Origin: Patescibacteria group bacterium
Lineage (GTDB): Bacteria; Patescibacteriota; Patescibacteriia; 2-01-FULL-39-33
Assembly: GCA_041650895.1 (NCBI GenBank)
Contig: JBAZKF010000001.1
Coordinates: 145,685 to 209,684 of the forward strand
Direction: 5' to 3'
Length of the DNA: 64,000 nt
Under the pieces are notes generated by a model. It ran no database searches. It had not been told where the DNA came from and saw only the letters and a list, made by a program, of their open reading frames with translations. Position 1 is the stretch's first letter. Each line of letters begins with the position of its first letter. This document shows positions 29,252 through 61,567 of this stretch, piece by piece. The position numbers and the translations under genes were made by a program.

Positions 29252-29254
29252 AAC

Positions 29255-33488: not shown

Positions 33489-33497
33489 AATTTAGAG

Positions 33498-34586: not shown

Positions 34587-34589
34587 AAA

Positions 34590-35546: not shown

Positions 35547-35550
35547 AAAA

Positions 35551-36975: not shown

Positions 36976-36983
36976 AATAATAA

Positions 36984-38213: not shown

Positions 38214-38216
38214 AGT

Positions 38217-39551
38217 TTAGTTTAGTTTAGAAAAGTATCCTCTCAAATAAGAAAAATGGGCTACTAAACTGAAAAATGACCAATAAACTATCAATGAGAT
38301 AATGGCATTCAACGGGGAAGTCAACTTCAAAACAAAAAATATCAGAATAAACCCAGAAACAAGATTGACGAGGTTTATAGCAATAGCATAGATATTTTTA
38401 TTGATTGTCCGATAAACTGACCCCAAACCAATCGTAAAACCGGAAAAAATAATGCTTAATGACAGCGGATAAACCAGCTTAATGCTTAAATTAAATTCCG
38501 GGCCATAAACAATTCTAATAAGGTAAGGAGCGACAGCCAAAGACGCTAAGACAATGAAAAAAAATATAAACCCGGCAAAAAGCGACGATTTATAAAAATT
38601 GGCTTTTAGATCTTTAATCCCGGCAACCTTGGCTTTAGGCAACTGCACCTGCAATAAACGACTGATCGGGGTCAGAAAAACATTAGACAAAGCCAAATAA
38701 GCCAAGGCTATTTTCAGGTTAGCCACCTCCGCCGATGAAGCCAAGTAACCAAGGATTAATAAAGGCAGAATATTAAACAAACTAGCGATATTTTTATCCA
38801 CAGCCATGACAAAACCGAAATTAAAGTATTTCTTAATTTTGACCTGATAAAAATTAGATAGAATCTCACCAAACGCTGGTACTAATTCATTGCGACGAGA
38901 AAAATTACGATAGACTAAAATAGAAAAAACCATGGATCCGATAATCGTTAATAAATAACCCCAAACGATTCCGGCTAAGCCAAAACCCATAAAAACAAAA
39001 ATCACCGGTAAAAACACGGCAAAAAATTTATTAATATTCTCTGCAATAGTCAGATATTTTATCTTTCGCATGACTTGAAGCAGGTTCACTAATAAACCAA
39101 AAAATATTTGGAAGATGTAGCCGACGATTATTAATCTGGCTAATTCGCCGATCAAGCGGTTATGATAAAACCACTGGGCTAAGGCGGGAGCTAAAATAAT
39201 AGCGGCCAAGCCGAAAGTAAAGGAGATGATTAAGTTCAATTTAAAAAAATAGGTGATGATATCCTTGATATCCTGACGGCTTCTTCTGGCGTAAGCCTCA
39301 GCCAAAAGCGTCAAAGTAGCATAACCGGTGCCCCAATCCATAAATAACCCGGCAAAGCTGGCTAAAGCAAAAATCAAGGCGTAATCACCGTACGTGCCGA
39401 CGCCCAAAACCCTGGCATAAATAACAGAGGCGATCAGCGACAGACCCAAATCCCAAAAGGAGCCCCATTGCAAAACCAATAGGTCACGAAAAAATTTCAG
39501 CTTCCATAAATATTGCCAACCGGAGATGATTTTTTCTTTAATTACTTTCAT
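38217..39551 (-). CDS. Polysaccharide/oligosaccharide flippase (Wzx-like, MOP superfamily)
   Basis: 444 aa, about 12-14 TM helices. Architecture and length are typical of O-antigen/EPS flippases. No soluble domain. Confidence 0.5.
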   Translation of the reverse strand: MKVIKEKIISGWQYLWKLKFFRDLLVLQWGSFWDLGLSLIASVIYARVLGVGTYGDYALIFALASFAGLFMDWGTGYATLTLLAEAYARRSRQDIKDIITYFFKLNLIISFTFGLAAIILAPALAQWFYHNRLIGELARLIIVGYIFQIFFGLLVNLLQVMRKIKYLTIAENINKFFAVFLPVIFVFMGFGLAGIVWGYLLTIIGSMVFSILVYRNFSRRNELVPAFGEILSNFYQVKIKKYFNFGFVMAVDKNIASLFNILPLLILGYLASSAEVANLKIALAYLALSNVFLTPISRLLQVQLPKAKVAGIKDLKANFYKSSLFAGFIFFFIVLASLAVAPYLIRIVYGPEFNLSIKLVYPLSLSIIFSGFTIGLGSVYRTINKNIYAIAINLVNLVSGFILIFFVLKLTSPLNAIISLIVYWSFFSLVAHFSYLRGYFSKLN

Positions 39552-39561
39552 TGTTTTAATA

Positions 39562-41058
39562 TTAGAAATTAATCATCTTTTTAATGCAAATCAAAGCTTT
39601 GACTAAGGGTTTAGGAATTTTATTTTTCTTAACGAAAAATAGATGCAAAATAGAAACACCTAAACGCACAATAGGATTCCTGCGATTTTTTATCAAGAAT
39701 TCAATCTGGATCTTCTTAAGTCGGGGAATAAGATAAATAACCTTATTCAAATAGCCTTTATTCAACAAGTGGAACTGTTTCTTTAAGTATGCTTGCCCAT
39801 CGGTCAGATGACCGTCAGCGATGGCTCGACGGTATAATTCCGTGCCAGGATAAAAAGTCAAGGAGAAAAGCGATAAATGAAATGGCTTTCTAATTCGATT
39901 AAGAATGTCAATGGTTAAAAGCAAATCATCCTCGGTCTCGTAAGGATTATCCAAAATTACATCAATAATGACATTTAATCTCCCCCGATATTTATCCAAA
40001 AGCGACATGGCCGTTAAAAATTGGCTGGATTTGGCATGCCTCAGATAGATATCCTGATTTACTCGATCGCTACCGCTCTGCAGACCCATTTGGATCATAT
40101 CTAATCCAGCATCAACTAACAGTTCTAATTTAGCGGCATCAATAGTGGTGGGACTAGCCAAACAGAAAAACGGCAAATCAATCTCTGCCTTATAGCGCCG
40201 ATTAAATTCCCTGATCCAATCCAAATCATTGACAGCAAAGCTGTCATCCATGATTTTAAATGATCGAATAAAAGGGAATTTATTTTTTATCATTTTCATT
40301 TCCGTGACCAATTGATCAACGGAACGTTTTCTCAAAAAAATACCGCTATAGATGTTACGAAAAACAGAATTGCAGCAGTAGGCGCAGGCATGGGGGCAAC
40401 CGCGCGAAGATAATAAACGATGGTCGCCCCGCGCCGCCGGATAATACTGCCGAAAAACACTTTCCGTCATAGGCAGTAATTCGCCCTGATGAATAATGTA
40501 ATGGTCGAAAAAATCATAGTCTGGAAAAGGCAATTCATCAATCGCGCTGATTAGAATTGATTTTCCGCCACTAATAATTTGACTGCCATTCTTATGCCAT
40601 AAGCCGGGAATATTAACGTTCTTATAATTAAGCCAATTATCATTCTCTGTTAATTGCAAAAGGGCCGACTCGCCCTCTCCAACGCAAACCAAGTCGGCGT
40701 AAACCAAACAATTTTCCGGATCAATGGTGGGATGAATTCCGCCCCAAATTACCGGCACGCTTGGAAAATTATCTTTGATTGACTTAGTGATATTTTTTGC
40801 GCGGAAGAAATGGTTGGACATCAAACTCAAACCAATTAAATCTGGTTTATATTTATTGATCAACTCTGCAATCTGTTTTAATTCCTGTTCATTCTCCAAC
40901 TCGCCATAAGGTTTGGCCAAAAATAAAATCGCCACATCCCGGCCGAATTTTTTTAAATAAGAAGAAAGATACCTGACGCCTAAAGCGCTGATATCGGTCG
41001 GAGCCTTTTTGAATTCCTCCACATCCTGCTGATTGAGTGAAATTAACAGAATCTTCAT
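39562..41058 (-). CDS. B12-binding-domain radical SAM protein, paralog 4
   Basis: MKILLISLNQ..., GGIHPT, SSRGCPHACAYCCNS. Confidence 0.85.
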   Translation of the reverse strand: MKILLISLNQQDVEEFKKAPTDISALGVRYLSSYLKKFGRDVAILFLAKPYGELENEQELKQIAELINKYKPDLIGLSLMSNHFFRAKNITKSIKDNFPSVPVIWGGIHPTIDPENCLVYADLVCVGEGESALLQLTENDNWLNYKNVNIPGLWHKNGSQIISGGKSILISAIDELPFPDYDFFDHYIIHQGELLPMTESVFRQYYPAARGDHRLLSSRGCPHACAYCCNSVFRNIYSGIFLRKRSVDQLVTEMKMIKNKFPFIRSFKIMDDSFAVNDLDWIREFNRRYKAEIDLPFFCLASPTTIDAAKLELLVDAGLDMIQMGLQSGSDRVNQDIYLRHAKSSQFLTAMSLLDKYRGRLNVIIDVILDNPYETEDDLLLTIDILNRIRKPFHLSLFSLTFYPGTELYRRAIADGHLTDGQAYLKKQFHLLNKGYLNKVIYLIPRLKKIQIEFLIKNRRNPIVRLGVSILHLFFVKKNKIPKPLVKALICIKKMINF

Positions 41059-41121
41059 GAATATTTAAAAATTATAAAACCGATTTAATGTGTTTAATTA
41101 TAACAGAAAATACACAATTAA

Positions 41122-42258
41122 TCAATGGCCTATTAATTCTCGGCAAGCAACTAAAACCTGTTCTGGCTTTATAGCCGAGAAGCAAATTTCCACCTCAGCA
41201 ATATCAATGTCACCGTTATACAACATCTTGCATTGTGGCCGGCAAACCCGACGATCAGTGACTAAACGATAATTATTTTCCGGCCGCTGGTTGTTATCGT
41301 CGCAAGGGCCCAGGATATCAACTACGGGGACTGACAGAGCATCGGCGATATATAATAAACCAGTGTCAACGCCAATAAACAAACGGCATTTCTTCAGGTA
41401 GTATGGCAAGATATTCAGATTTTTACCCAAAATCAAATAACTTTCTCCGCCCGCTTCTTGCCTAATTTGCTCTAAGTATTCCTCTTCATCCTTGAGGCCA
41501 AAAATAAAAAAAATCGGTTGATACTCGGCATTTATCTTCTGTATTAATTCAATCCAATAATCTTTAGGCCAGACTTTATAGTCTTTGCCGGATGAAATAA
41601 CGGCACCGAAAATCATTTTATCGTCTAAGGAATTGATATGAAAAAAATCCTCTACTTCCGGGCAAGTCGCGAAGAAAAACAGCTGATTGCTTTTATTCTC
41701 AACGCTGAAACCAGCTTCCCGCAATAATTCAAAATAAAACTCCTTAATTGAGCGGTCAAATTTGTAATCTTTAGTTTTGTAATACGGATAAAGCAGACGT
41801 AATGATCTGCCGTCTAATCGCGTGGCAACCGAATAAGATTTGGCAGCATTTAAAGATAAACCTAAAATGCCGCCCTCAAAATTATTCACTAAATTAAAAT
41901 AAGCTGTAAGCTCAAATCGGCTTAAATATAGCCACTGCTTAAGCAGCCATTTCAGGCTACCTGCCTCCCGCTCATGGACAAAGCCAATTCTCTCATCAAT
42001 AAAGGGATTGCCTTGCCAAATATCCAAAAATTTATTCCTCGCAAAAACAATCAGTTTCGTTCCCTGGTTAGCTTTTTTTAAGGCCTCTAAAACCGGCGTT
42101 AAACAAACCATATCGCCCAATTTGCCCGTATAAAAAACCACTATCGCCCGACCGATTTTTCTCCCCCGATAAAACCGTCCCAATAAGCGTAGCAATAAAG
42201 CCAGAGGCAATAAAAATATTTTTCTGATTGAGTCAAATGAATAAACCCTCATAATCAA
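41122..42258 (-). CDS. GT9-family glycosyltransferase (heptosyltransferase-like)
   Basis: RAIVVFYTGKLGDMVCLTPVLEALKK matches the GT9 N-terminal signature (rILvir.g.lGD.v..tP.l.aLk). The C-terminal GVDTGLLYIADALSVPVVDILGP is also GT9-like. Confidence 0.65.
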   Translation of the reverse strand: MIMRVYSFDSIRKIFLLPLALLLRLLGRFYRGRKIGRAIVVFYTGKLGDMVCLTPVLEALKKANQGTKLIVFARNKFLDIWQGNPFIDERIGFVHEREAGSLKWLLKQWLYLSRFELTAYFNLVNNFEGGILGLSLNAAKSYSVATRLDGRSLRLLYPYYKTKDYKFDRSIKEFYFELLREAGFSVENKSNQLFFFATCPEVEDFFHINSLDDKMIFGAVISSGKDYKVWPKDYWIELIQKINAEYQPIFFIFGLKDEEEYLEQIRQEAGGESYLILGKNLNILPYYLKKCRLFIGVDTGLLYIADALSVPVVDILGPCDDNNQRPENNYRLVTDRRVCRPQCKMLYNGDIDIAEVEICFSAIKPEQVLVACRELIGH

Positions 42259-43670
42259 GAAGTTTTAGTGGTAAACCATTTTATTATATTTTTCCTATTT
42301 TTCCATAGCTTACGCGTTGAGAAAAACGGGTGCGACAAATAATATTCTATTTTGGCTCGCCGGGCGAACTGAAAAATCTTTTCATAGCTTAAATCCGGCT
42401 GCTCAAAAATCGGCACATTAGCGCAGGACACTAATGGAGGATACGATCGTTTTTCTTCATAAAATTCCGCCCAGGAAAAATCATTTGGCAGGGTGCCGAT
42501 TTTTTTGGCCTCCAGCTCAATCGCAGTATGAGGATAAATCATCGTTAGGGTTTGAGTTGTCTCATCAACGCCCAGTTTGTTCTCCAAGTACCGACTCAAA
42601 AAAACAGTCTTCTTGATATCCGCGTAAGTTTCTCCCGGCAAACCATGCATGAAAAATACTTTTAATTTTATCCCCGCCCCCTTGATTATTTTTATAGCCT
42701 CAATCACCTGGCTGACGGTAATGGCCTTCCTGATATTCTTTAAAATTTCATCACTGCCTGACTCCGCCGCCATGGCAATATGCTCGCAACCGGCTCGCTT
42801 CATCCAATCAACCAACTCGGCATCAATATTATTGGCTCGAGCCTCGCACCACCAACTGACCTTTAATTCTCTGGCGATTATCTCCTGGCAAATTTCAATG
42901 ACACGCTGTTTATTCATCGTAAAACAATCATCAAAAAATCCAACGCCATCAAGTTTGTAAGTATTTAGCAGGAACTGTATTTCATCCACGACATTTTTAG
43001 CGCTCCGATAGCGGATGTTATGGCCCCACTGCTCCGCTGTGGAACAATAAACGCAATTATACGGACAGCCGCGACTACTGATAACACTGGTACAAATCTT
43101 CGTTGATAATGGTATAGTCTGGCGATATTCATTAATCGGAAGCAAGTCTCTGGCTGGCAACGGCAAACTGTCTAAATCGGCAATTGCTTGACGGTTGGCA
43201 TTATGGATTATCTCCCCCTGATTATTGCGATAAGATAAACCATTAACGCCAGATAGATCTTCCTTATTCGCAATAGCTTTAATTAATTCTAAAAAGGTCA
43301 ACTCCCCCTCTCCCCTGACAATCATATCAATTGACTTAATATGCTTTAGAGTATCACCGGCGGTCAGTGTTGGATGAGGTCCGCCGGCCACAATCGGCAC
43401 TGCCGGCAGATTGTTTTTAATCAGTTCGGCCAACTCAAAAGCATAAAAACGATTTTGCGTGCCAAACGACAACCCGACAATATCAGCGCCTTGTTCTTCT
43501 AGGATTTCAATAATCTTTTTGTTGTCGTACCTGTTGATAACACTATCAATAATATAAACATCATTAAAACCGTTTTCCCGCAAAACCGCAACTAACCACG
43601 CCAAACCGAGTGGCGGCATGGTTTCTTTTGTTTGATAAAGGGAGGGAGGAAAAATTAAAGCTATTTTCAT
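42255..43670 (-). CDS. B12-binding-domain radical SAM protein, paralog 5
   Basis: MKIALIFPPSLYQ..., LGLAWLVAVL, GGPHPT, SSRGCPYNCVYCSTAE. Confidence 0.85.
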   Translation of the reverse strand: MKIALIFPPSLYQTKETMPPLGLAWLVAVLRENGFNDVYIIDSVINRYDNKKIIEILEEQGADIVGLSFGTQNRFYAFELAELIKNNLPAVPIVAGGPHPTLTAGDTLKHIKSIDMIVRGEGELTFLELIKAIANKEDLSGVNGLSYRNNQGEIIHNANRQAIADLDSLPLPARDLLPINEYRQTIPLSTKICTSVISSRGCPYNCVYCSTAEQWGHNIRYRSAKNVVDEIQFLLNTYKLDGVGFFDDCFTMNKQRVIEICQEIIARELKVSWWCEARANNIDAELVDWMKRAGCEHIAMAAESGSDEILKNIRKAITVSQVIEAIKIIKGAGIKLKVFFMHGLPGETYADIKKTVFLSRYLENKLGVDETTQTLTMIYPHTAIELEAKKIGTLPNDFSWAEFYEEKRSYPPLVSCANVPIFEQPDLSYEKIFQFARRAKIEYYLSHPFFSTRKLWKNRKNIIKWFTTKTS

Positions 43671-43671
43671 A

Positions 43672-45021
43672 TTATTTTTTAAAAATCACTTCCTGCCAAA
43701 AAACCGGTTTATACCAATATCCTCGGCCGTATTTAAGGCGATTCTTATAATCCCTTAAGAACAATAAACTCCAAAAAGGCTTCAATTCGGTATTAATCAA
43801 TCCCGCATATTTTTCAATATTATTCCAATGCAACCTTTTACCGGGGAATTTATTTTTTATCCGCTCGAATAAAACGGTTCCAGGATAAGGGATAACGGGC
43901 AAAAATTGTTTAACTTGCAAATTATTTTCGACAATAAAATCTATAGTTTCTTTAATGGTCTGCCGATTTTCTCCCGGTGCGTTCAATAAAACACAATACC
44001 CTCCGGCTACGCCGTTCTCTTTTAAGATATCAATCGCCGATCGTAAATCTGCCGAAGTTATTTTTTTATTAATTTCAATTAAAACCCTGTCACTGGCGGA
44101 CTCCATGCCTAAATTTACATTAATACATCCGGCTCGCTTGACTAAAGGCATAATCCCCCTACTCTTAATGATATCAGTCGCCCGGGCATTGGCGCCCCAA
44201 GAAAACCTGAGGCCTCGATCAATGATAGCTGAACAAATCCTCTCTACCCTGTCGCCATCAATAAAAAATTCCCAGTCCTGAAAAAAAACTGATTTAATTT
44301 GAAAATTATTTATCAAGTACTCAATCTCTTCTATTACTTTTTCAACACTCCTAACAATATAACGTCCGGGCATCATGGCCTTAAGGCAGAAAACACAATT
44401 GTAAGGGCAGCCGCGCGAAGTCATTATGACAGAAAAAGGCTTCTCATAATCATTGCTGGAATATTTATCCATCGGCAACAGATCATAGGCCGGCAAAGGC
44501 AAAACATCCAGATCAATGATTCTCTCACTTGGATTATTCACGATTTTGCCGCCTTGACGATAAGACAAGCCGGAAACTTTCGAAAATGCCTGCTCTGCGG
44601 CCAGGGTAACAATCAAATCAGACGCGGATAATTCTGGCTCACCCCTGATAATAAAATCAACTTGGCAATTATCAAACACCCATTCTGGCATAGTGGTGCC
44701 GTGACTGCCGATCAATATTTTGTACTTAACCTTTACCCGGTCTATAATCTTAAAAATGTTTTCAATATGGGAATTAGGGCACTCCCAGCGGTCAATCGGC
44801 GTAGAGGTAATAATGAAGGCCTCGGGACCGAAATCATTGACTGCCTGGTAAATGGATTCTAACGGCAAATTCAAAACATTGGCATCCAATAATTTGATAT
44901 CGTGGCCGGCCTGCCTTAAAATAGAGGCGATAATAGCCATCGACAACGGCTGCCTGGCCCTGACATTCATAATTGACTTCTTCTCCTGGTTAAAATTAGG
45001 AATTAATAAAAATATTTTCAT
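43672..45021 (-). CDS. B12-binding-domain radical SAM protein, paralog 6
   Basis: TSRGCPYNCVFCLKAM. The start is probably MKIFLLIPNF at 45021 (or MINLIDK at 45042). The longer track ORF up to 45207 would overlap the upstream gene. Confidence 0.8.
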   Translation of the reverse strand: MKIFLLIPNFNQEKKSIMNVRARQPLSMAIIASILRQAGHDIKLLDANVLNLPLESIYQAVNDFGPEAFIITSTPIDRWECPNSHIENIFKIIDRVKVKYKILIGSHGTTMPEWVFDNCQVDFIIRGEPELSASDLIVTLAAEQAFSKVSGLSYRQGGKIVNNPSERIIDLDVLPLPAYDLLPMDKYSSNDYEKPFSVIMTSRGCPYNCVFCLKAMMPGRYIVRSVEKVIEEIEYLINNFQIKSVFFQDWEFFIDGDRVERICSAIIDRGLRFSWGANARATDIIKSRGIMPLVKRAGCINVNLGMESASDRVLIEINKKITSADLRSAIDILKENGVAGGYCVLLNAPGENRQTIKETIDFIVENNLQVKQFLPVIPYPGTVLFERIKNKFPGKRLHWNNIEKYAGLINTELKPFWSLLFLRDYKNRLKYGRGYWYKPVFWQEVIFKK

Positions 45022-45034
45022 TTTATCGATTAAG

Positions 45035-47599
45035 TTAATCATTGATATAAACCGCTTTGCAACATCTGGAACAAATCGGTAACGAATGCTTGAATAAATA
45101 TTGACGGAATTTTTGGTAATCATTGGACAGCCAAATCTCATCAGGAGTCTTATCCAATAAGCTCCCGAAAGATTTTTCAATGATATCGCACCAAACAACT
45201 TCGCCACGCTGATTAATGCGCAACTCGGGCTGCAATAATTTCAAACAAAAAGGCCGGGACGGTTTCTGACCCAAATACTGCGGTAAGTTATGATAATAAT
45301 TCAACGGAGAGAAATTAACAAAACAGCCAGTCTTAAGTCCGTACAATCTGATTTTAGCCAATTTTTTCTTCAACTCTACGGCGTCAGTATCAGGAGGAAA
45401 AATAGGATCCCTAATCTGCGTATTAAGGCGGTAATCGCGGCCCTCTTCCCAGCCAAACTCCCGATTAAAAATACTCTTGGCTTGAGCTACGTCGGCAGAT
45501 GAATAAACTTGCTCAAATAAGACATTAATTGTTGTAATGCCTAATTTTTTAGTGGTATCAATCAATTCAAAAAATTTATCTACATTATCATTAATTAACA
45601 AGGTGGCGAAAATGGTAATAGGAACTTTAGGCATTTTGGCCTGCAAAAGCTTAATGGCCCGCTCCAACCGATCAAAAGTACCCGGTACGCCCCTAATAGC
45701 GTCATGTAACTCCTTGGGACCGTCCAGCGAGGTTAGAATATCAGTCAGATGCTTATAACCCGCTAATTGATCAATATTACGCTCATTAATAAGCGTACAG
45801 TTAGTTTGAAGGATTACCCGTTTACCGAGAGAATCCCAAAAAGCAATAAGCTGCAAAATATCTTGGCGGGCGAATGGTTCGCCGCCGACTAATTTTATTT
45901 CTTCCACCTGGCTGGACATTTTTTTAAACACCTCAAGAATCTGTTCAGCTGACAATTCCTGCTGGCGTAAATTCCTATTCTCTCCTTGATAACACATCTT
46001 ACAACGCAAATTGCATCTGATGGTCGGTTCATAGCCGACTTCATAAACTAGCGGGGACTCGGTTTGAAAAGGCAGAGCCGGCGCTTGAATAAATTTTTTA
46101 ACCCTGATAATCGCCAACCTATTCCGCCGCCAATCATAAAATATTTTTGCCAGCGGAGAGATTATTGGCACGGCTTTTACCGCTTTTTTAAGCTGATGCT
46201 TATTATTTTTCAAATAAGTTAAGAATAATCCGCAATCATAAACTAAAGGCGAAAAGAAAAAGACATAAACCGGCAGGCGATAACGCGCCAAGACAAAGGG
46301 CGAGACCATCAAAGCGGTATACAGAATTATCATCACTGCAAAAATGAAAAATAGCAGTTTATCCCGATCTTTAAAATAAGAATAAATTAAGGCGATAGCC
46401 AAGGCCAGAGAACTAATACCCCATAAAGCAACACCGGCCAAATAAGTTAATAGTTTAAGATTAATCTGTTTGATGAAGTCAAAAATTCCCTGCCAGTTGC
46501 CATTCAAGATAAATCCGGTGATATCCGGTTTAGAAAACTCCCCAGTGCAAGCCGACCACATCTCGAAGTATCCGGGCTGAAAAAAGAAAGGTATTGTCCT
46601 AATCAGATGAACCTTAAGATAGCCGCCCAGATTGCCTAATATATAAGCCTTGGCCGTTTGACTGTAATAATCCAGCTCGCGATTGAATTCAGATAAGCTG
46701 ACTGACAGGCAATCGCCTTGATTGCCGATATTTTTCCCCAGAGCGCTATCGGCTTGCCGGACAATAAGATTATAAGCATCAGCGTAAGGAATTTGTCTCT
46801 GATAAGAGATCAGCGCTGGCAGATTATAAAAATAAATATTAGTATCAAATAGATTGACCAAAGCCGGCCGATTATAAACAACCTTATTCCTAATAATGAT
46901 CGGCGAAATCACCGCAAAAAATACAATCATGAAAGCAACACAACTTAACAAAATCTTGCGCCAACTCAACTTCGCCAATCCGCCGGTCGGTACGAGTTTC
47001 CGAACCAAATAAACTAAAACAAGACCGGCTGGAAATATTAAAAGCAAGGGGGAAGTATTTTGCCTAGCTAATGTTGAAATGCCGAGCCAAAAAGCGCTCA
47101 GCAACAAATCCCTGCTCTTAGCGCTGGAGAAAAATTTCAAAAAATAATATGTGCCGCCTAAAAATAACGGGATGGCCAAATTCTCGCTGACCAACAAAAA
47201 ATTATGCCAAGCCCAATAAGGTTCAATGGCAATCAAAAAAGTAACCAACAAAGAAATCTTCTCGTTAAAAAACAAGCGAACCAGCTTATAGCCGATGATT
47301 AAGGTCACGAAAGCCAAAACTACTTGCGCCAAATAAATCGTCCATTCCCCTCCCAACCAATGCAATAAGACCGAAGTCGTCAAGTAATACAATGGCGGAT
47401 GCCAATCACAGTAATCGTGAAAAATACCCAATAAAACAGAAACAGCCGGCTGAGCCTGGTTATAAAAATTCTGCCAACCGCCTTTATTTAAGCTGGCCTG
47501 CCAAAAAGTGATAAAAATTGAAATACGCACCGCCAGAAAAGCGGCGACAATGACCAGCCATGACCGATATTTAAAAACGATATTTCTTATATTTGACAT
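45035..47599 (-). CDS. Fusion protein: N-terminal polytopic GT-C-like membrane domain (ArnT/PMT_2, COG1807-like) plus a C-terminal radical SAM domain with a terminal Cys pair
   Basis: 854 aa. The N-terminal ~470 aa have about 12 TM helices and the DWHPPLYYL motif, which is characteristic of PMT_2/ArnT-like GT-C enzymes. The C-terminal domain carries YEPTIRCNLRCKMCYQGE (CxxxCxxC), LVGGEPF, SLDGPKELHDAIRGVPGTF and ...LPICSRCCKAV. Confidence 0.7.
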   Translation of the reverse strand: MSNIRNIVFKYRSWLVIVAAFLAVRISIFITFWQASLNKGGWQNFYNQAQPAVSVLLGIFHDYCDWHPPLYYLTTSVLLHWLGGEWTIYLAQVVLAFVTLIIGYKLVRLFFNEKISLLVTFLIAIEPYWAWHNFLLVSENLAIPLFLGGTYYFLKFFSSAKSRDLLLSAFWLGISTLARQNTSPLLLIFPAGLVLVYLVRKLVPTGGLAKLSWRKILLSCVAFMIVFFAVISPIIIRNKVVYNRPALVNLFDTNIYFYNLPALISYQRQIPYADAYNLIVRQADSALGKNIGNQGDCLSVSLSEFNRELDYYSQTAKAYILGNLGGYLKVHLIRTIPFFFQPGYFEMWSACTGEFSKPDITGFILNGNWQGIFDFIKQINLKLLTYLAGVALWGISSLALAIALIYSYFKDRDKLLFFIFAVMIILYTALMVSPFVLARYRLPVYVFFFSPLVYDCGLFLTYLKNNKHQLKKAVKAVPIISPLAKIFYDWRRNRLAIIRVKKFIQAPALPFQTESPLVYEVGYEPTIRCNLRCKMCYQGENRNLRQQELSAEQILEVFKKMSSQVEEIKLVGGEPFARQDILQLIAFWDSLGKRVILQTNCTLINERNIDQLAGYKHLTDILTSLDGPKELHDAIRGVPGTFDRLERAIKLLQAKMPKVPITIFATLLINDNVDKFFELIDTTKKLGITTINVLFEQVYSSADVAQAKSIFNREFGWEEGRDYRLNTQIRDPIFPPDTDAVELKKKLAKIRLYGLKTGCFVNFSPLNYYHNLPQYLGQKPSRPFCLKLLQPELRINQRGEVVWCDIIEKSFGSLLDKTPDEIWLSNDYQKFRQYLFKHSLPICSRCCKAVYIND

Positions 47600-47610
47600 A
47601 GTATTTTCTG

Positions 47611-49050
47611 TTATTGCTGCTTTTTACCGCTAAGGATCCACTCGCACAGTGCTAGAAATCCTAAAAAATAAATTTTAACGTGTTTCGGGCTTCTTAGACG
47701 TTTCACATAATTAAGGATAATCCGCGGACGAAAATAAAATTTACGGAAAAACAAGCGATTAGAAGCTATAAGTTCCTCCCGCGTCAAGCCGAACGGCACG
47801 AAAACCGGCTCCCATTCGTTCATTTTTTTCCAATCCTTATCAAAAGTCCCATACTGGGAATAATTGCCGCTGATTTCCGAACCGGGCAATGGCGTCATTA
47901 GAGTGCAATGGAATTCGTCAATTTTAAGTGACAGCGCAAAATCGATCGTTTCTTTGATCGTCTCGCGGGTTTCCCCGGGATGGCCCATGATAAAAAACGC
48001 GCCCACATCAATTCCTGCCCCCTTAGTCCAGTTGATAGCGCTTCTAATCTGCTCCTTAGTGGTGTTTTTCTTAATTAATTTTAAAATGTTTTCATTGCCT
48101 GATTCCACGCCATACCAAACCTGCCAACAGCCCGCCTCCTTCATTACTTTAAACATTTCCGGCTCAACCATATCAACGCGGGCTAAGGCTGTCCAGACCA
48201 AATCCAATTTTTTTTCTTTCAGCAGTTCGCAAAATTTGTAAAGACGCGGCTTAAAAACCGTAAAATTATCATCGCGAAACTGAATCTCCCTGATGCCGTA
48301 TTTATAATAAAGCAACAAGACCAGCTCCATCATATATTCCGCAGAATGAGCCGACAGGACGTTGCCATAAACGCTTCTAGTGCAGAATGTGCACTGACCA
48401 GGACAACCTCTTGAAGTAACTAAAGTTGAAGCGGGAAATTTTTTAACCGTATGAACCGGCGGAGAATATTTGACTAAATCGGGCAATAAATCAAAAGCCG
48501 GTTGAGGTAAGGCGTCAAGATCAATAATTCTGGCACGCGGCGCTGTAATAATAAATTCATCCGACACATCAGATTTAAAAATCAATCCATTAACCTGTCT
48601 TAACTGATCCTTGCTCAAGCCGTTTTGAGATAATATCGATAATAACTCAACCAAGGTCCTCTCACCCTCGCCGATAATCCCCAAATCGAATTTGGGATAA
48701 AGCTTCAGGGTTTCTTCCGGCGCCGTGCTCAAATGATGGCCGCCGATCAAAGTGATTATGCCAGGTTTGATCTTTTTAATTTCCCGAGCAACCGCCGCCG
48801 CGTTATCAATAGAGATAGTAACTGCCGTAAAACCAACAATGGCGGGATCGGCTGCCAAGACTCGTTCTGTAGTTGCAACGGTGCCCAAATCCATAATTTC
48901 CGCATCAATAATACTAACCTCATGACCCGCCGCCCTGACGGCAGCCGCCAAATATACCAGTCCCAAAGGAATAGACTCTCCCCCGCTTTTGCTTTTTATC
49001 CCATATCTTTCTTCTAAAGTTAATGGGGGTTGGACTAAAATTATTCTCAT
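47611..49050 (-). CDS. B12-binding-domain radical SAM protein, paralog 7
   Basis: MRIILVQPPLT..., LGLVYLAAAV, GGHHLS, TSRGCPGQCTFCTRS. Confidence 0.85.
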   Translation of the reverse strand: MRIILVQPPLTLEERYGIKSKSGGESIPLGLVYLAAAVRAAGHEVSIIDAEIMDLGTVATTERVLAADPAIVGFTAVTISIDNAAAVAREIKKIKPGIITLIGGHHLSTAPEETLKLYPKFDLGIIGEGERTLVELLSILSQNGLSKDQLRQVNGLIFKSDVSDEFIITAPRARIIDLDALPQPAFDLLPDLVKYSPPVHTVKKFPASTLVTSRGCPGQCTFCTRSVYGNVLSAHSAEYMMELVLLLYYKYGIREIQFRDDNFTVFKPRLYKFCELLKEKKLDLVWTALARVDMVEPEMFKVMKEAGCWQVWYGVESGNENILKLIKKNTTKEQIRSAINWTKGAGIDVGAFFIMGHPGETRETIKETIDFALSLKIDEFHCTLMTPLPGSEISGNYSQYGTFDKDWKKMNEWEPVFVPFGLTREELIASNRLFFRKFYFRPRIILNYVKRLRSPKHVKIYFLGFLALCEWILSGKKQQ

Positions 49051-49068
49051 AATAGAAAATACTAAAAA

Positions 49069-49764
49069 TTAAAAACGATATTTAATCAGGGTCCAAATAG
49101 CAATTAAACCGTCGCGAAGTTTTATCTTTTTACCTTCTTCTTGCGAGCGGGGAATATAGGAAATCGGCACTTCATGAATCTTAACGCCCTGCCGAGAAAT
49201 CTTGGCTGTTATTTCCGGACAGAATTCAAAACCCTTGGCTTCAATATTTATCTTATCCAAAACTTGTTTGCTGACCATTTTATAGCAAGTCGCCTCATCT
49301 GTTATGGCAGTGCCGTAAAGAAAATTAGTCAACCAAGTCAGATAGACTCCACCCAAATAATAAAACCAGCCGGCCTTAGGACTTTTCTTTCTGGTCAATC
49401 CTAAACGCCTAGAACCATAAACCGCTTGAGCGCCGCATTCTTCTGCTTCATTTATCAATCTTTTCAGATCATTGGGATTATATTCTAAATCAGCATCCTG
49501 AACGACAGCATAATCGCCGGTTGACACTTTGTAACCGGCAGCTACGGCCGCGCCCTTGCCTTGATTTTCAGGCAGATGGATAATGATATATTTATCCTGA
49601 TAGCGATCAAGCACTTCTCGGGAATTATCGGTGGAACCGTCATTGACTATAATAATTTCTTTGTTAACGCCTAAATCAGCTTCCGACAATTTTTGTAAAA
49701 TAGCCCCGATGGTTTTTGCTTCGTTGTAGGCCGGAATAACAATGGAAAGTTTATTGATTTTCAT
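49069..49764 (-). CDS. GT2 polyprenyl-phosphate sugar synthase (DPM1-like), duplicate-module copy A
   Basis: KLSIVIPAYNEAKTIGAIL...IIIVNDGSTDNS...ENQGKGAAVAAG...QDADLEYNP. 231 aa, clearly paralogous to 57163..57858. Confidence 0.8.
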   Translation of the reverse strand: MKINKLSIVIPAYNEAKTIGAILQKLSEADLGVNKEIIIVNDGSTDNSREVLDRYQDKYIIIHLPENQGKGAAVAAGYKVSTGDYAVVQDADLEYNPNDLKRLINEAEECGAQAVYGSRRLGLTRKKSPKAGWFYYLGGVYLTWLTNFLYGTAITDEATCYKMVSKQVLDKINIEAKGFEFCPEITAKISRQGVKIHEVPISYIPRSQEEGKKIKLRDGLIAIWTLIKYRF

Positions 49765-49768
49765 AATA

Positions 49769-50425
49769 TTATTTCTTTTTGCAAACTAAATAATAACCGC
49801 TAGTTAAAATGCCATTTTCCGGCCGGGAATGCCTGATATCGCCGAACTCACTCTTTATCGGCGAAGGCAGCCAAACCAATAATTTAACTAATAAAAATAA
49901 CGGGATTTTCATTAAGCGACCGCCGAATAAATTGGCTTGAAAACCTATTCTTTGTAATAAAGCGGCCAAAGTATCCTTAGTTGACAACTCATTGCGCAAT
50001 TCGATTATTTCCCAGCCGTCACTAAATAAAAACCTTAGGCCATACTTGGTAAAACGATAGTAATCATTGGGAATATCATGAAGAGGAAAAATAAACCTGG
50101 TAGTCAAAAGCAACACTCCGCCTGATTTCAGGACTCTTTTCATCTCGGCGACGGCTAAGTGAGGCGAATGCAAATGCTCCAGCAATTCAGTACATAAAAT
50201 CAGATCGAATTTATCATCGGTAAAAGGCAACTGATGAGCGTCGCCCACCACATCAACATTAATCCCCGGCCGATGGTCAAAACCGATGCGGTTGGGAAAT
50301 AAACTTTTGTAAGAACCGTCACCACAACCCAAATCAAGCACCAATTTTTCCGTTGACTGGTACTGGGCGATGAAAGCATCGATTTTTTTTCTGGTTATTT
50401 TGGCAGTTAGAAATTCTTTAATCAT
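49769..50425 (-). CDS. Class I SAM-dependent methyltransferase
   Basis: Motif I VLDLGCGDGSY. Motif II FDLILCTELLEHL. Confidence 0.75.
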   Translation of the reverse strand: MIKEFLTAKITRKKIDAFIAQYQSTEKLVLDLGCGDGSYKSLFPNRIGFDHRPGINVDVVGDAHQLPFTDDKFDLILCTELLEHLHSPHLAVAEMKRVLKSGGVLLLTTRFIFPLHDIPNDYYRFTKYGLRFLFSDGWEIIELRNELSTKDTLAALLQRIGFQANLFGGRLMKIPLFLLVKLLVWLPSPIKSEFGDIRHSRPENGILTSGYYLVCKKK

Positions 50426-50434
50426 TTTTGCCGT

Positions 50435-51553
50435 TTATGAATTAATGAAAGAGACGATTTTTTCAGCGCGCTTCTTCCAAGTATATTTTTCCGCATCGCT
50501 CCGGGCGCAACGAGAGATATTCTCGGCTAATTGCCGTTGCGTCAAAGCCCGGTTAATGCCCGCCGCTAAAAGATCAGAATTATCCGGCTCAACTAAAATA
50601 GCATTATTATCATTTAAAATTTCCCTCAAAGAAGGCAAATTAGAAGCGACTATAGGTACGCCACTGGCTAAATATTCAAAAAGTTTAAGCGGTGAAGTAT
50701 AAAATTGCGATATTTTTTCCTGCCCGGAATTAGGCAAAACCAAAACATCAGCGGCCTTCAGATAGAACGGGATTTGCTTATGCGGCTGATGGCCGAGAAT
50801 TAAGACATTAGCGCTATTGACATTTTTTTTCTTAAAAGCTTCAACATCTTCCTTAGTACCGCCGATAAAAACAACCAGGGATTCATTAGACAGATACCGG
50901 GCGGCTTCAGCCAAAACCTGCGCTCCTTTCCAACCATAAAGATGGCCGGTGTAAACAATCAATTTTTTATCCAACGGCAAATTAATTTTTTTCCTGGACT
51001 CCGTGGCGGTAATATTCAGATCAAACTCAGCCAAATCAACGCCATCGGGAGCAATTAATATTTTATCAGCAGCGATTCCGTTGCTGGCCAGAGCGGATTT
51101 AATAAAATCAGTCAGAACAACAATCCGTTGAAAACACCGCCAAAAAAGACGATGATACGATTTGATTGTTGCAGGCAAGGAGTGAAGTTCCAAAAAAGAC
51201 GATTTAAAAAATAAGCCGAACTGTTCTTCGCGTGTATATATAATATCATACTCCCTGAAAGACACGTAGATTCTGCTGGCTAACAAAAAAGTTGCAGTCG
51301 CCAGCCAAAAAGCCAGATTACCAATTGTTTTATCCAAAAAAATCAAATCTAAACAGGGTAATTCGGTAATCTTAAAATTAGCCGGTAAACCGTAATAGTT
51401 GAAGGGATCGGCTTTAAGATTATTAGAACGCCGCGGTACCACCAATTCAACTTGATGACCCAAAACAGAGAAAGTCTCGCACATTTTCATGATTTGCCAG
51501 CCATGAGCCTTCTCGGTCGGTATTCTGATGTTTGCCAAATAAATTATTTTCAT
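50435..51553 (-). CDS. GT4-family glycosyltransferase
   Basis: The start is probably MKIIYLANIRIPTEKAHGWQIMKMCETFSVLGHQVELVVPRR at 51553, a 4-nt overlap with the upstream stop. The C-terminal half is GT-B fold. Confidence 0.75.
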   Translation of the reverse strand: MKIIYLANIRIPTEKAHGWQIMKMCETFSVLGHQVELVVPRRSNNLKADPFNYYGLPANFKITELPCLDLIFLDKTIGNLAFWLATATFLLASRIYVSFREYDIIYTREEQFGLFFKSSFLELHSLPATIKSYHRLFWRCFQRIVVLTDFIKSALASNGIAADKILIAPDGVDLAEFDLNITATESRKKINLPLDKKLIVYTGHLYGWKGAQVLAEAARYLSNESLVVFIGGTKEDVEAFKKKNVNSANVLILGHQPHKQIPFYLKAADVLVLPNSGQEKISQFYTSPLKLFEYLASGVPIVASNLPSLREILNDNNAILVEPDNSDLLAAGINRALTQRQLAENISRCARSDAEKYTWKKRAEKIVSFINS

Positions 51554-53709
51554 TTTTTTGTTTTTACTAAATAACACATTTGATGGCCGAACATATTAGG
51601 CCAAATATCTTTAAGACGAAAACCATTAGACGATTTAAATCTAACAACATCTAGACCCAAATCATTCAGCCAAATCAAAAAATCCTTATGGCTCCAAAAC
51701 CGCAGGTGTTCTGACGGATGTGTCATCCATTGGGTAAAAAATCTTCCTCCAAACATTAAGCCGAAACGATAACGGTAAAAAGCGGAATTAGGAACTGAAA
51801 TTGCCAAATAGTCGGCATTATCTTTTATTTTAGAGATTAAATCCTCGGGATATTTGATGTGTTCCAAAACCTCTGAAATCACAATGTAATCATATCGGTC
51901 GTCCAAATTAAAATCAGCGCTCTCGATATCGGCTTTTACTCCGTCAATGCCGGCTTGCTTTAAGTTATTGATTACTAATCCGGAAATATCCAAACCACTG
52001 ACCCGGCAACCCTTCTTTTCTTTTAATTCATAAGGCAGACGCGAACTGCCACAGCCAAGATCCAGAATTTTAGCTCCGGGCTTAATCCAATCCATAAAAA
52101 TCACTTCCCTTTCCATTAATTTGCTACGCATCTTGAAGCCGCGCTCTGACCAATACTGATCATAATCAAGTTGTTTGGTGATATTTTTGAAATCAGGGCG
52201 ACGCGTACCCTCAAAGAAGAACGATTTCGAGACGCGAGCTATGATTTTGTCAAAATAATACTTAAGCGCGCGCTTGACTTTGAATAATATAAAATCTAAA
52301 CGCTCTTTTTTGTTACCCAACTTAAGCCAGATTTTTGCCAGCTTCAAAAAGTGGGTTAAGCCTCTCTTTTTTACGCCCTCAAATATCTCCTGACGCCAAC
52401 TCTCAAATAATTTTCCCAACTCCTGGGAATCACTGACGCCAGAACGATTGAATTTGTCCTGGCTTTGGAAAAAAGAGAAATTACAATAATCGGAGGTATT
52501 GATACGACCCTTAAAAAAATCATTAAAAAGCTTCGTCCCTGGCAGGGCGGTAAAGATACTGAAAGAATAATGATCAGCTTTGATTTTCTTGGCGAATTCA
52601 AAGGTTTGCCGCATTTCTTCTTTAGTTTCGCCGGGCAGGCCGATCATAAAGCCGGCTTCGCGACGGATGCCGTGTTTCCGGCAAAGTTCCAGGGCTTTTT
52701 CCACATCGGATAATTTTATCCTTTTATTAATGATTTCATCTAAAACGCGCTGATTACCCGATTCAACGCCAAAATCAAGCTGTAAACAGCCACTTTCGGC
52801 CATTAACTTGATGATTTCTTCATTAACCAAATCCACTCGCGATTGAGCCCCCCAATACAGACCGGCTTCCTTCATAATCTGGCAAACCTTCCTAACATGA
52901 TCGTAATTAGCCGTTAAGGTATCATCAGCAAACCAAATTCCTTCAACGCCATATTTATCCCTTAAAAGATAGATTTCTTTTTTGATGTTTTCCAAACTGC
53001 GATAACGCACCTGACGCCCAAAAACCTGATTGCAGGCGCAAAAAGTGCAGCTGTAGGGACAGCCCCGGGAAGCCATAACCATCACCGCTTTCATAGGGAT
53101 GCCTCGGATAATATCGTCCCAGATCTTAGTATAGTAGGTCATATTCACCTTATCATAAGCCGGCAAGCTTAAATCAGTCAGATCCATATACTCCCGCCGT
53201 TCATTGATGACAACTTCATTATTCTGATCCGGCCAGGCGATGCCCTTCACCTTCCTTAGATCGGGCGACTCCTGCTGTAATTCCTTAATTAATTCAAAAG
53301 TAGTTTGTTCGCCTTCGCCGATAATGGCGGCATCAAAGCCGGAATTAACTACGCCAATCGGATCGGCTGTAGCTTGAGGCCCGCCGATAATCGAAAAAAC
53401 TTTGAGTTCTTTTTTAATCCTCTGATTCATTTCCACAGCTTCGGCAATTTCCATGGTCGTGGCAGTAAAACCGATTACTTGCGGCTTAAACTCTAAAACA
53501 GCCTTAATGATCTCCTCCTTGGCTCTTTCACGATTATCGTATTGATAGCCTCTGTCCGCGAATATTTTCCCGTCGATAATCAAATTATCAAAACCATGAT
53601 CCCGCAAATATCCGGAAATATACATCAAACCCAAAGAATAACGATGCTCCTTGAGCCGTTTAGGGGGAAGAATAAAAATCAAATCTTTATCTTGGCTAAT
53701 TTTTATCAT
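51550..53709 (-). CDS. Fusion: B12-binding-domain radical SAM protein (paralog 8) plus a C-terminal class I SAM-dependent methyltransferase domain
   Basis: 719 aa. Residues 1-470 contain IIGGPQAT and ASRGCPYSCTFCACNQ. Residues ~480-719 contain ILDLGCGSSRLPYEL (motif I), GLDIS and DYIVISEVLEHIKYP (motif II). Confidence 0.8.
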   Translation of the reverse strand: MIKISQDKDLIFILPPKRLKEHRYSLGLMYISGYLRDHGFDNLIIDGKIFADRGYQYDNRERAKEEIIKAVLEFKPQVIGFTATTMEIAEAVEMNQRIKKELKVFSIIGGPQATADPIGVVNSGFDAAIIGEGEQTTFELIKELQQESPDLRKVKGIAWPDQNNEVVINERREYMDLTDLSLPAYDKVNMTYYTKIWDDIIRGIPMKAVMVMASRGCPYSCTFCACNQVFGRQVRYRSLENIKKEIYLLRDKYGVEGIWFADDTLTANYDHVRKVCQIMKEAGLYWGAQSRVDLVNEEIIKLMAESGCLQLDFGVESGNQRVLDEIINKRIKLSDVEKALELCRKHGIRREAGFMIGLPGETKEEMRQTFEFAKKIKADHYSFSIFTALPGTKLFNDFFKGRINTSDYCNFSFFQSQDKFNRSGVSDSQELGKLFESWRQEIFEGVKKRGLTHFLKLAKIWLKLGNKKERLDFILFKVKRALKYYFDKIIARVSKSFFFEGTRRPDFKNITKQLDYDQYWSERGFKMRSKLMEREVIFMDWIKPGAKILDLGCGSSRLPYELKEKKGCRVSGLDISGLVINNLKQAGIDGVKADIESADFNLDDRYDYIVISEVLEHIKYPEDLISKIKDNADYLAISVPNSAFYRYRFGLMFGGRFFTQWMTHPSEHLRFWSHKDFLIWLNDLGLDVVRFKSSNGFRLKDIWPNMFGHQMCYLVKTKK

Positions 53710-54775
53710 ATTTGTTTTTGGGGCCTAATAACTCTTCAATAAGACCGCCATCTAACAATTGTTTGACTAAAATTTCCGGCCGGCATAATCGGCAATAAAT
53801 CTCATAACCATTATCGGCGATTTTTTCATAATTTATTCTACCCTCTTTCAGCGCTAAGATTTTAGACGCCAAATCCTGGGCATCGGCCAAACGGCAAAAA
53901 ACCGCATCTTGGCCGTCCGTAAGCAATTCCCTGATAGCCGAAGAATCACCGGTCAAAACCGGCCGCTTGGCCGCTAAGCCCTCATAAACCTTATTAGGGA
54001 TAACTCTTTTAGCTTTATCAGTATGGCCGAATATACCTAGGCAAACATCAGCCTCCGCCAAATAGCCCCTTAAATTATCAATGGACACGGGCTCTATAAA
54101 ATTAACATTACTGACTTTAAGCCGGCTCGCCAAGTCAATTATTTCCCGGTAAGTCTGACCGTGGCCGATAATATTAAATTTGATATTTTCCCCCTCTAGA
54201 ATTTTCGTCGCTTCAATAATATACTCTATGCCCTGTAAAGGAATAAAACTGCCATGAAAATGAACCAAAAAATAATCTTTTTTCTTAGGAGTAATAGGAA
54301 AAATAACCTTATCATCACAACCGACTAAAACCCGATAAAACTTTTTTCTCTCCAACTTTAATTCTTTTACAAAATAGTCAATCTGGGCATTGGTATCCAA
54401 TAAAATTTTATCCGCCAAACGGCAGGATAACCAATCCAATAACCAGTAATACCTTCCTTTAAGGCTTTGCGCTTTAACGATTTTCCTATCTTCAACCATG
54501 GAATCAAAAAAAGAGTAAAAAGCGTCAAAAACAATCGGTTTAACGGTTAAAAGCCTGGCCAAAATCATGGCCTGAAACCCCGGAAAACCAACGATCATAA
54601 TATCATATTTCTTACGGATTGACCAGTGTTTTTTAATTAAATCCCAATACTTCAACGGCCCTTTGACGCTTGTTCGGCATTCAATCACATCAACGCCGTT
54701 TAACTTAAAACCGCCAAGCAAAATCCTATTGCGGCTATAATCAGGATCATAAATTCCGAAATAACAAATAATCAT
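53696..54775 (-). CDS. GT-B fold glycosyltransferase (GT4-like)
   Basis: MIICYFGIYDPDYSRNRILLGGFKLNGVDVIEC is an N-terminus typical of a GT4 subfamily. A Rossmann-like C-terminal half follows, with EGLAAKRPVLTGDSSAIRELL. Confidence 0.55.
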   Translation of the reverse strand: MIICYFGIYDPDYSRNRILLGGFKLNGVDVIECRTSVKGPLKYWDLIKKHWSIRKKYDIMIVGFPGFQAMILARLLTVKPIVFDAFYSFFDSMVEDRKIVKAQSLKGRYYWLLDWLSCRLADKILLDTNAQIDYFVKELKLERKKFYRVLVGCDDKVIFPITPKKKDYFLVHFHGSFIPLQGIEYIIEATKILEGENIKFNIIGHGQTYREIIDLASRLKVSNVNFIEPVSIDNLRGYLAEADVCLGIFGHTDKAKRVIPNKVYEGLAAKRPVLTGDSSAIRELLTDGQDAVFCRLADAQDLASKILALKEGRINYEKIADNGYEIYCRLCRPEILVKQLLDGGLIEELLGPKNKYDKN

Positions 54776-54779
54776 AATA

Positions 54780-57858: not shown

Positions 57859-57873
57859 AAAAATAATTAATAT

Positions 57874-59346: not shown

Positions 59347-59351
59347 AGCTT

Positions 59352-61559: not shown

Positions 61560-61567
61560 CTCAATAA

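Follow-up and report, generated by a model that had tools for sequence, protein, structure and literature searches.

A membrane GT-C glycosyltransferase fused to a twitch-type radical SAM domain in a glycan-assembly cluster of a Patescibacteria group bacterium

We analyzed a stretch of 64,000 nucleotides (the window) from the genome of a Patescibacteria group bacterium (assembly GCA_041650895.1, contig JBAZKF010000001.1, positions 145,685 to 209,684), in which a single gene on the minus strand, at 45035..47599, encodes a membrane glycosyltransferase of the GT-C type joined to a radical S-adenosylmethionine (SAM) domain and a twitch-like accessory domain. The open reading frame (ORF) starts with ATG and ends with TAA (stop codon 45035-45037), and its product of 854 residues is described in the public annotation merely as a 'radical SAM protein'. 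A first-pass annotation, made from the DNA letters alone, had singled out this ORF and quoted three motifs from it, all of which lie where they had been placed (CDWHPPLYYL at residues 64-73, CNLRCKMC at 529-536 and CSRCC at 843-847 of the translation); the strand, which it had not stated, is the minus strand. It had also proposed a search with profiles for the expected domains, and all three Pfam models scored above their curated cut-offs, i.e., PMT_2 (PF13231) on residues 67-218 (33.4 bits, cut-off 26.1), Radical_SAM (PF04055) on residues 523-681 (85.1 bits), and SPASM on residues 790-846 (30.4 bits).

The fusion gene sits in a tight minus-strand operon, flanked by two genes that Pfam identifies as cobalamin (B12)-binding radical SAM (B12-rSAM) genes. 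The upstream one, at 47611..49050, is 11 nt away, encodes 479 residues and lies between the fusion gene and a family 2 glycosyltransferase (GT2) gene; its position is kept, the same gene being found there at loci L001 and L004, with the same spacing at L017. The downstream one, at 43672..45021, is 13 nt away. For this gene a start at GTG 45207 (ORF 43672-45207, overlapping the fusion gene by 173 nt) was rejected as over-extended, because the junction sequence offers an ATG at 45021 that gives a product of 449 residues, matching the 449-residue orthologue in L004.

Residues 1-465 of the fusion (46205..47599) form a membrane domain of PMT_2/ArnT-like GT-C type, as the first-pass annotation had held. 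Besides the PMT_2 match of the fusion itself, that of an orthologue, P0272, reached 54.1 bits. When an AlphaFold2 model of the N-terminal domain alone (predicted local distance difference test score, pLDDT, 88.9; predicted template modeling score, pTM, 0.89) was compared with the PDB using Foldseek, the top 31 matches were all GT-C enzymes (AglB, ArnT, STT3, Pmt1/2/4, EmbA/B, ALG9/12, PglB, AftB, and PimE), mostly with a probability of 1.00, with modest E values of 1e-4 to 0.2 and TM-scores of 0.3-0.5. With the full-length model as the query, only radical SAM matches were found among the top 50, and a profile of the N-terminal family run against PDB sequences retrieved no GT-C protein, giving one spurious match only.

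From the AlphaFold2 models we read ten transmembrane (TM) helices (residues 12-39, 86-108, 113-132, 139-159, 162-178, 185-198, 213-242, 381-409, 412-432, and 438-465) plus juxtamembrane helices, and not the 12 or so TM helices first suggested. The outside loops include the first (residues 40-85) and a large one (residues 243-380). The count of lysine and arginine residues, 18 in the cytoplasmic loops versus one in the short outside loops, predicts a topology with both termini of the domain inside, and thus with the radical SAM domain on the cytoplasmic side. This was checked independently through three tri-fusions (P0008-P0010), in which a GT2 domain precedes the GT-C and radical SAM domains; both ends of the GT-C domain have to be in the cytoplasm there, because both soluble domains need cytoplasmic substrates.

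The DWHPPLYYL motif (residues 65-73; 47381..47407) falls in the first extracytoplasmic loop, between TM1 and TM2, and in the family alignment D65, W66, H67, P68, P69, Y71, and Y72 were invariant in 32 of 32 members. The full set of invariant positions in the GT-C family comprises H61, C64, D65-P69, Y71, Y72, E126, P127, R179, N181, C297, K357-P-D359, and R439-Y-R-L-P443. By likeness to the acidic residues in the first external loop of ArnT, PMT, and oligosaccharyltransferase (OST), D65 is a candidate catalytic or metal-binding acid. C64 and C297, both of which are in outside loops, may form a disulfide.

The radical SAM core, also recognized in the first pass, comprises residues 519-780 (45260..46045). 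Its cluster motif, C529-x3-C533-x2-C536, lies at 45992-46015 and is accompanied by GGE at residues 572-574 and by S624, D626, and G627. The three cysteines and the SAM-motif residues G572-G-E574 were invariant in 66-67 sequences. Residues 519-764 of the AlphaFold2 model consist of alternating beta and alpha elements, and Foldseek returned radical SAM enzymes at E values of 1e-9 to 1e-5 (SuiB, SkfB, DesII, anSME, BlsE, viperin, and MoaA).

Residues 781-854 (45038..45259) form an accessory Fe-S domain, with the motif C785-x13-G799-x4-C804 ... C843-x2-C846-C847; the protein ends 7 residues further on. All five cysteines are invariant or nearly so (66/67 to 68/68). This domain had been termed SPASM-like in the first pass. 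That it is an accessory Fe-S domain was borne out, but it is not a full SPASM domain, because of the seven-cysteine SPASM motif (CX9-15GX4C - CX2CX5CX3C - C) the CX2CX5CX3C half is absent from the fusion sequence, leaving five invariant cysteines. Both spacing and conservation fit instead the twitch pattern, i.e., CX9-15GX4C followed by a distant CX2C, which provides four ligands for one [4Fe-4S] cluster. The Pfam SPASM model gives a match despite the missing cysteines because it also covers twitch domains. The domain is better described as twitch-like, with one auxiliary [4Fe-4S] cluster predicted from the sequence, and with CX3CX2C, GGE and the five twitch cysteines invariant or nearly so, the radical SAM domain looks catalytically competent. 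Among NCBIfam models, N_Twi_rSAM scored 65.9 bits with the radical SAM half, below its cut-off of 170, and there were many further sub-threshold matches to SPASM and twitch families, including AhbD, NirJ, HpnH, and PqqE. Since all of these are sub-threshold, the domain belongs to no named equivalog.

These comparisons bear on two explanations of what the radical SAM domain acts upon. The top PDB matches by E value were SuiB, SkfB, anSME, CteB, and PqqE, and some sources label relatives 'AslB', as might be expected of a peptide or protein maturase, of the anSME, sactipeptide, or ribosomally synthesized and post-translationally modified peptide (RiPP) type, that modifies a peptide or the acceptor protein of the GT-C domain. 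We regard this as very improbable, because no RiPP recognition element (RRE) domain, precursor-peptide gene, or sulfatase was present in any context examined, and because the enzyme has one auxiliary cluster site, whereas anSME and sactisynthases have two; assignment to the RiPP/sactipeptide/anSME maturase class was rejected on the same grounds. It is also improbable that the substrate is a lipid, i.e., the polyprenyl carrier or a membrane lipid, as for HpnH, Tes/GDGT-MAS, or ladderane-type enzymes. The enzyme is at the membrane, and HpnH (72 bits) and GDGT-MAS turned up as weak matches by profile or structure, but these are no better than its matches to dozens of other SPASM/twitch families, and all genomic contexts are glycan clusters, just as the fusion partners of its relatives are glycan enzymes.

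The two halves are joined by a basic helical linker (residues 466-518; 46046..46204) that contains helices at 467-476 and 480-505 and 11 lysine or arginine residues, and which probably docks on the membrane or on the GT-C domain. Alignment across the junction shows that it is the counterpart of a conserved N-terminal extension in stand-alone orthologues of the radical SAM domain ('KKIIKKIP....AK..YDWR.EKKL'). The full-length AlphaFold2 model, built on an 88-sequence alignment, had a pLDDT of 93.4 and a pTM of 0.83, a value that, in a two-domain chain, suggests a defined arrangement of the domains.

In many relatives the two halves are encoded by separate, overlapping genes in different frames, and the exact 854-residue product has no entry in the gene catalogue, both of which would be compatible with an assembly or frameshift artefact that has joined two adjacent genes, a danger that the first-pass annotation had itself raised. 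The chance of this is negligible. Fused orthologues with the same architecture of PMT_2, radical SAM, and SPASM matches were found at 84, 81, 52, 51, 48, and 49% identity (P0001, P0002, and P0004-P0007, respectively), as was P0272, and the three tri-fusions with the extra N-terminal GT2 domain are 1076-1084 residues long. Fused proteins of 45-84% identity come from different samples in independent assemblies (ENA, JGI, Logan, and NCBI); the gene for P0002 is present in those of ENA, Logan, and NCBI, and that for P0010 in those of ENA and JGI. The fused gene also occurs in the species-representative genomes of two Candidatus Buchananbacteria metagenome-assembled genomes (MAGs; L010 and L012). 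A 508-residue fragment on a separate JGI contig, P0003, is 100% identical and spans the fusion junction, and the alignment there is gapless. The independent fused orthologues, together with this fragment, rule out mis-assembly.

With the radical SAM half as the query, stand-alone proteins about 385 residues long were found at 45-68% identity, more than 100 in all, in Portnoy-, Falkow-, Paceibacter-, and Parcubacteria-type genomes, and the radical SAM family amounts to more than 100 clusters at 90% identity. Eight of the stand-alone matches sit on contigs equal in size to those carrying stand-alone PMT_2 matches. At L001, a PMT_2 gene of 472 residues (6614-8032) overlaps a radical SAM gene of 388 residues (8001-9167), and the entire cluster is syntenic with the window. 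At L002, a gene for a 688-residue GT2::PMT_2 protein (5938-8004) overlaps the radical SAM gene (8001-9158) by 4 nt, in a cluster with teichoic-acid-type genes, including a Glyphos_transf gene, and without B12-rSAM genes. A purpose-built hidden Markov model (HMM) scan of all fetched loci found further split but adjacent pairs at L003, L014, L017, and L018. As a separate observation, AbiEii-type toxin genes lie beside, or are inserted upstream of, the radical SAM/glycan clusters in two unrelated Patescibacteria contigs (L002, 1252-1980; L015, 3171-3947).

The junction alignment displays a clean end-to-start join, in that the stand-alone GT-C proteins end just past the last TM helix and the stand-alone radical SAM proteins start with the conserved basic helical extension of about 55 residues that corresponds to the linker. 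In a neighbor-joining (NJ) tree of the radical SAM domains, constructed without support values, fused forms branch among the split ones at four or more points, and the nearest relative of the clade from the window is the split P0033; this suggests repeated, independent fusion. At the 50%-identity level there were only two fused representatives among 1.84 billion proteins, so that, unlike the common gene pair, the fusion itself is rare. The survey that the first pass had called for thus revealed fused, tri-fused, and split-adjacent forms across Patescibacteria. The Rosetta-stone argument that it had made is valid, and stronger than could be seen from the window, because the same two proteins are made from adjacent, overlapping genes in many Patescibacteria.

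The case for a split counterpart within the window fared otherwise. A second, distinct set of four genes, all on the minus strand (30679..35546; Pfam and NCBIfam), comprises a 318-residue GT2 (34590-35546), a 362-residue radical SAM protein (rSAM362; 33498-34586; twitch-like, with CX18C...CWCTHYC), a 611-residue polytopic membrane protein (31653-33488), and a flippase-like LPG_synthase_TM protein (30679-31653). The first-pass annotation had taken rSAM362 and the 611-residue protein, which do lie side by side as it stated, for the split equivalent of the fusion. We rejected this, because rSAM362 is only 28% identical to the radical SAM domain of the fusion, in the core only, and belongs to a large orthologous group of its own whose constant upstream neighbor is a different GT2, of 317-328 residues, and because the 611-residue protein has no similarity to the N-terminal half of the fusion by BLASTP. 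The GT2-rSAM362 pair is conserved at L008, L009, and L027. In relatives of this set another glycosyltransferase gene lies between the rSAM362 orthologue and a 566-572-residue homologue of the 611-residue protein, with an LPG_synthase_TM gene nearby. The GT2 at 34590-35546 is without matches of the polyprenyl-phosphate synthase type.

The GT-C nature that had been assumed for the 611-residue protein found no backing from Pfam (PMT_2, 18.9 bits, under the cut-off) and partial backing from hhalign against the GT-C family, in which the match covered TM3-7 only (84.6% probability, E = 6.8e-6); its family profile had no match among PDB sequences. That it is a distant GT-C is plausible from the profile comparison. 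Radical SAM proteins working with glycan membrane proteins are therefore a recurring theme, though the second pair is not a split form of the fusion.

The wider relationships of the radical SAM domain point the same way. At about 30% identity there are relatives joined to a Wzx-type flippase (P0322, 792 residues), a GT4 (P0325, 769 residues), a GT28 (P0355, 744 residues), a B12-rSAM protein (P0332, 821 residues), and a GFO/IDH/MocA oxidoreductase (P0399, 737 residues), from which it follows that the wider clade is glycan-associated. In a Sphingomonadaceae MAG, a relative of 36% identity has a PMT_2 protein on either side. The relatives of about 30% identity constitute, in themselves, a wider and unexplored set of fusions between radical SAM and glycan enzymes.

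A third partner, missed in the first pass, which had named no GT2, is encoded on the minus strand at 49069..49764. This 231-residue GT2 is 58% identical to the GT2 domain of the tri-fusion P0008. Its best PDB matches were DPMS (5mlz), ArnC (9hwj, 9bhc, and 8vxh), and GtrB (5ekp), and its best NCBIfam matches were AglJ, ArnC, PpgS, PgfS, and dolichyl-phosphate hexose transferase, all under the equivalog cut-offs; by best similarity it is of the polyprenyl-phosphate sugar synthase type (DPMS/ArnC/GtrB/AglJ). The gene is syntenic at L001, L004, L010, and L017, and in about ten other clusters the GT2 and the GT-C form one fused protein. From this fusion or adjacency to a DPMS/ArnC/GtrB-type GT2, the putative donor of the GT-C domain is a polyprenyl-phosphate-linked sugar.

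Our best reading is that the fusion is one polypeptide carrying two enzymes on opposite faces of the membrane, i.e., a predicted ten-helix GT-C with its catalytic loop (D65-W-H-P-P) outside and a twitch-type radical SAM enzyme in the cytoplasm. It would be part of a three-component module with the GT2, in which lipid-linked glycosylation of the ArnC/ArnT or CsbB/YfhO type is supplemented by a radical tailoring step on the cytoplasmic face. The GT2 would load a sugar from a nucleotide diphosphate (NDP)-sugar onto polyprenyl phosphate on the cytoplasmic face, where the tethered radical SAM domain would then abstract a hydrogen from the lipid-linked sugar and tailor it, most likely either by oxidation or epimerization (as with BtrN, HygY, and NeoN) or by dehydration or decarboxylation (as with DesII and BlsE). 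The lipid-linked product would then be flipped, for which the cluster offers GtrA-like and flippase-like genes, and on the outside the GT-C domain would attach the tailored sugar to a polymer or protein of the cell surface. That a polyprenyl-phosphate sugar is the substrate of the radical SAM domain has, in our estimate, a probability of about 0.45. The candidate flippase is a small GtrA-family membrane protein encoded on the minus strand at 22525..22992 (Pfam GtrA_DPMS_TM, 112.9 bits), proposed by analogy.

Several known systems resemble this scheme in part. In the ArnC/ArnD/ArnE-F/ArnT pathway, which adds aminoarabinose to lipid A, a GT2 makes an undecaprenyl-phosphate sugar, the sugar is tailored in its lipid-linked form on the cytoplasmic face, and after the action of a flippase a PMT_2-family GT-C uses it outside; the GT2 described here matches ArnC structures and the GT-C domain matches ArnT. 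However, tailoring would here fall to a radical SAM/twitch protein rather than to a deformylase, and that protein is fused or translationally coupled to the GT-C. In addition, ArnT has 13 TM helices plus a C-terminal periplasmic domain, whereas we read ten TM helices in the fusion, which lacks such a domain. In the CsbB(GtlA)/GtcA/YfhO(GtlB) and GtrB/GtrA/GtrV systems, teichoic acids or O-antigen are decorated through the joint action of a GT2 synthase, a small flippase of the GtrA family, and a GT-C, and the window has all three gene types; the location of the L002 module in a teichoic-acid-type cluster with a Glyphos_transf gene is a further likeness. We know of no radical SAM component in these two systems, and, to our knowledge, neither GT2::GT-C nor GT-C::radical SAM fusions have been described for them. 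In mycobacteria, DprE1/DprE2 epimerize a sugar on decaprenyl phosphate, which then serves as donor for the GT-C enzymes Emb and Aft, a precedent for redox tailoring of a polyprenyl-phosphate sugar. The chemistry there depends on flavin and NADH, not on radical SAM, and the enzymes are not fused to the GT-C. ArnD and DprE1/E2 are both precedents for tailoring a sugar on its carrier. Finally, the carbohydrate twitch/SPASM enzymes BtrN, HygY, and NeoN, and also DesII and BlsE, share the CX3CX2C core; BtrN has one auxiliary cluster on CX9-15GX4C...CX2C, and DesII and BlsE were among the structural or sequence neighbors that we found. Identity to these enzymes is, however, only 14-20%; they are soluble, their substrates are aminoglycoside or nucleotide-sugar intermediates, and none is known to be membrane-tethered or linked to a GT-C.

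The last comparison raises the alternative that the radical SAM domain takes a soluble nucleotide sugar as its substrate, ahead of the GT2, as DesII or BlsE do, and that tethering just channels the product. DesII, BlsE, and viperin are among the Foldseek neighbors, BlsE is the second-best PDB sequence match, and a soluble sugar oxidoreductase is the fusion partner of one distant relative. We nevertheless think this rather unlikely, because even the stand-alone orthologues retain the basic helical extension of about 55 residues that is equivalent to the linker, their genes overlap the GT-C gene and not the GT2 gene, and fusion to the membrane protein recurs in the NJ tree.

The surroundings of the operon bear on another alternative. 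The module lies in a glycan-assembly cluster of about 41 kb (23051..63990; Pfam and NCBIfam) that contains an initiating polyprenyl glycosylphosphotransferase (23051-24400, plus strand), a Wzx-type flippase (38217-39551, minus strand), GT4, GT2, and GT9 genes, deacetylases, SAM methyltransferases, and ten B12-rSAM genes. With this full Wzx-type pathway at hand (initiating phosphotransferase, many GT4/GT2 genes, and Wzx flippase), the radical SAM domain might instead tailor a polyprenyl-diphosphate-linked oligosaccharide repeat, or some other cytoplasmic glycan intermediate, with the fusion to the GT-C just holding it at the site of assembly and the GT-C adding an unmodified sugar outside. The fusion of distant relatives to Wzx and GT4, which handle diphosphate-linked oligosaccharides, would agree with this, as would the orthologues that have no adjacent GT-C. 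The tightest and most recurrent partners are, however, the GT-C and the GT2 of the polyprenyl-phosphate-sugar-synthase type, and not Wzx or GT4 proteins, and the module is also found in the differently composed L002 cluster, with its teichoic-acid-type genes and without B12-rSAM genes. We would give this alternative a real but distinctly minor chance.

Several other points weigh against the reading in which the radical SAM domain acts on a polyprenyl-phosphate sugar that the GT-C domain then uses. Coupling of the GT-C and the radical SAM protein is frequent but not obligatory: orthologues at L011, L013, L015, L016, and L025 have no GT-C of the fusion's family within 4 kb, and acidobacterial relatives of 34-37% identity adjoin a glucan phosphorylase and an epimerase instead. 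No characterized homologue fixes the substrate, all NCBIfam matches being far under the equivalog cut-offs, and the closest structural neighbors are a mixture of RiPP maturases and sugar/nucleotide enzymes. The topology is based on reading of helices and the charge rule, and the arrangement of the domains is suggested by the pTM of the model.

The ten B12-rSAM genes, recognized by Pfam, occupy 27833-63013 of the window (27833 on the plus strand; 29255, 35551, 39562, 42255, 43672, 47611, 51550, 57874, and 61568 on the minus strand). With the two twitch-type enzymes they make 12 radical SAM domains in about 36 kb, in a bacterium of the candidate phyla radiation (CPR) with a genome of about 1 Mb, and the layout of the B12-rSAM-rich cluster is conserved at L001, L004, and L006. 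The ten genes imply a surface glycan that is unusually heavily modified, perhaps by C-methylation, and that the cell needs to scavenge cobalamin. A still more inclusive claim is that of an undescribed enzyme class: a membrane-anchored twitch radical SAM enzyme would act directly on a polyprenyl-phosphate-linked sugar, in obligate association with the GT-C that uses up its product, whether or not the two are fused, and with the ten cobalamin-type enzymes this would yield a heavily C-modified, CPR-specific surface glycan. Taken as a whole this claim is tentative, and we would hold it with clearly less than even odds.

Some further features of the cluster were recorded. The B12-rSAM gene at 51550-53709 (minus strand) encodes a 719-residue fusion to a MetW-like class I SAM methyltransferase, conserved at L004. 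At the cluster edge (25998-27828, plus strand), a polysaccharide deacetylase with DUF3473 adjoins a FemAB/GNAT-like protein, a hint that the glycan may carry peptide or aminoacyl branches. Outside the cluster, the first 2 kb of the window (1-2000) have a GC content of 51.6%, versus about 41% elsewhere; an Rfam scan of positions 1-6000 found no family. A tRNA scan of the whole window found two genes only, for Val and Ala, at 18201-18351.

Lipid-carrier glycosylation with three components (GT2 synthase, flippase, and GT-C) is widespread, decorating lipid A, O-antigen, teichoic acids, and proteins, and we found no radical SAM step described for it. Our literature searches returned no description of a link between GT-C and radical SAM proteins, in keeping with the first-pass remark that no such fusion was known to its author, and a search of the literature on twitch-type carbohydrate epimerases returned only the neomycin C epimerase NeoN. 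While each domain superfamily and the three-component logic are known, we found no earlier description of a radical SAM enzyme as a component, or of its repeated joining, by fusion or coupling, to a GT-C and a polyprenyl-phosphate sugar synthase. The fusion offers a natural example of one polypeptide with predicted active sites on both faces of a membrane. Its recurrence provides a concrete, testable hypothesis as to the substrate of a large, uncharacterized radical SAM family, for which the stand-alone orthologues of 385 residues give an experimental handle. It is also relevant to the cell envelope of Patescibacteria, of which the chemistry is barely known; these bacteria probably rely on their surface for their episymbiotic lifestyle. 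In many relatives of this bacterium, fused or neighboring genes point to an undescribed radical step in the building of cell-surface sugars.

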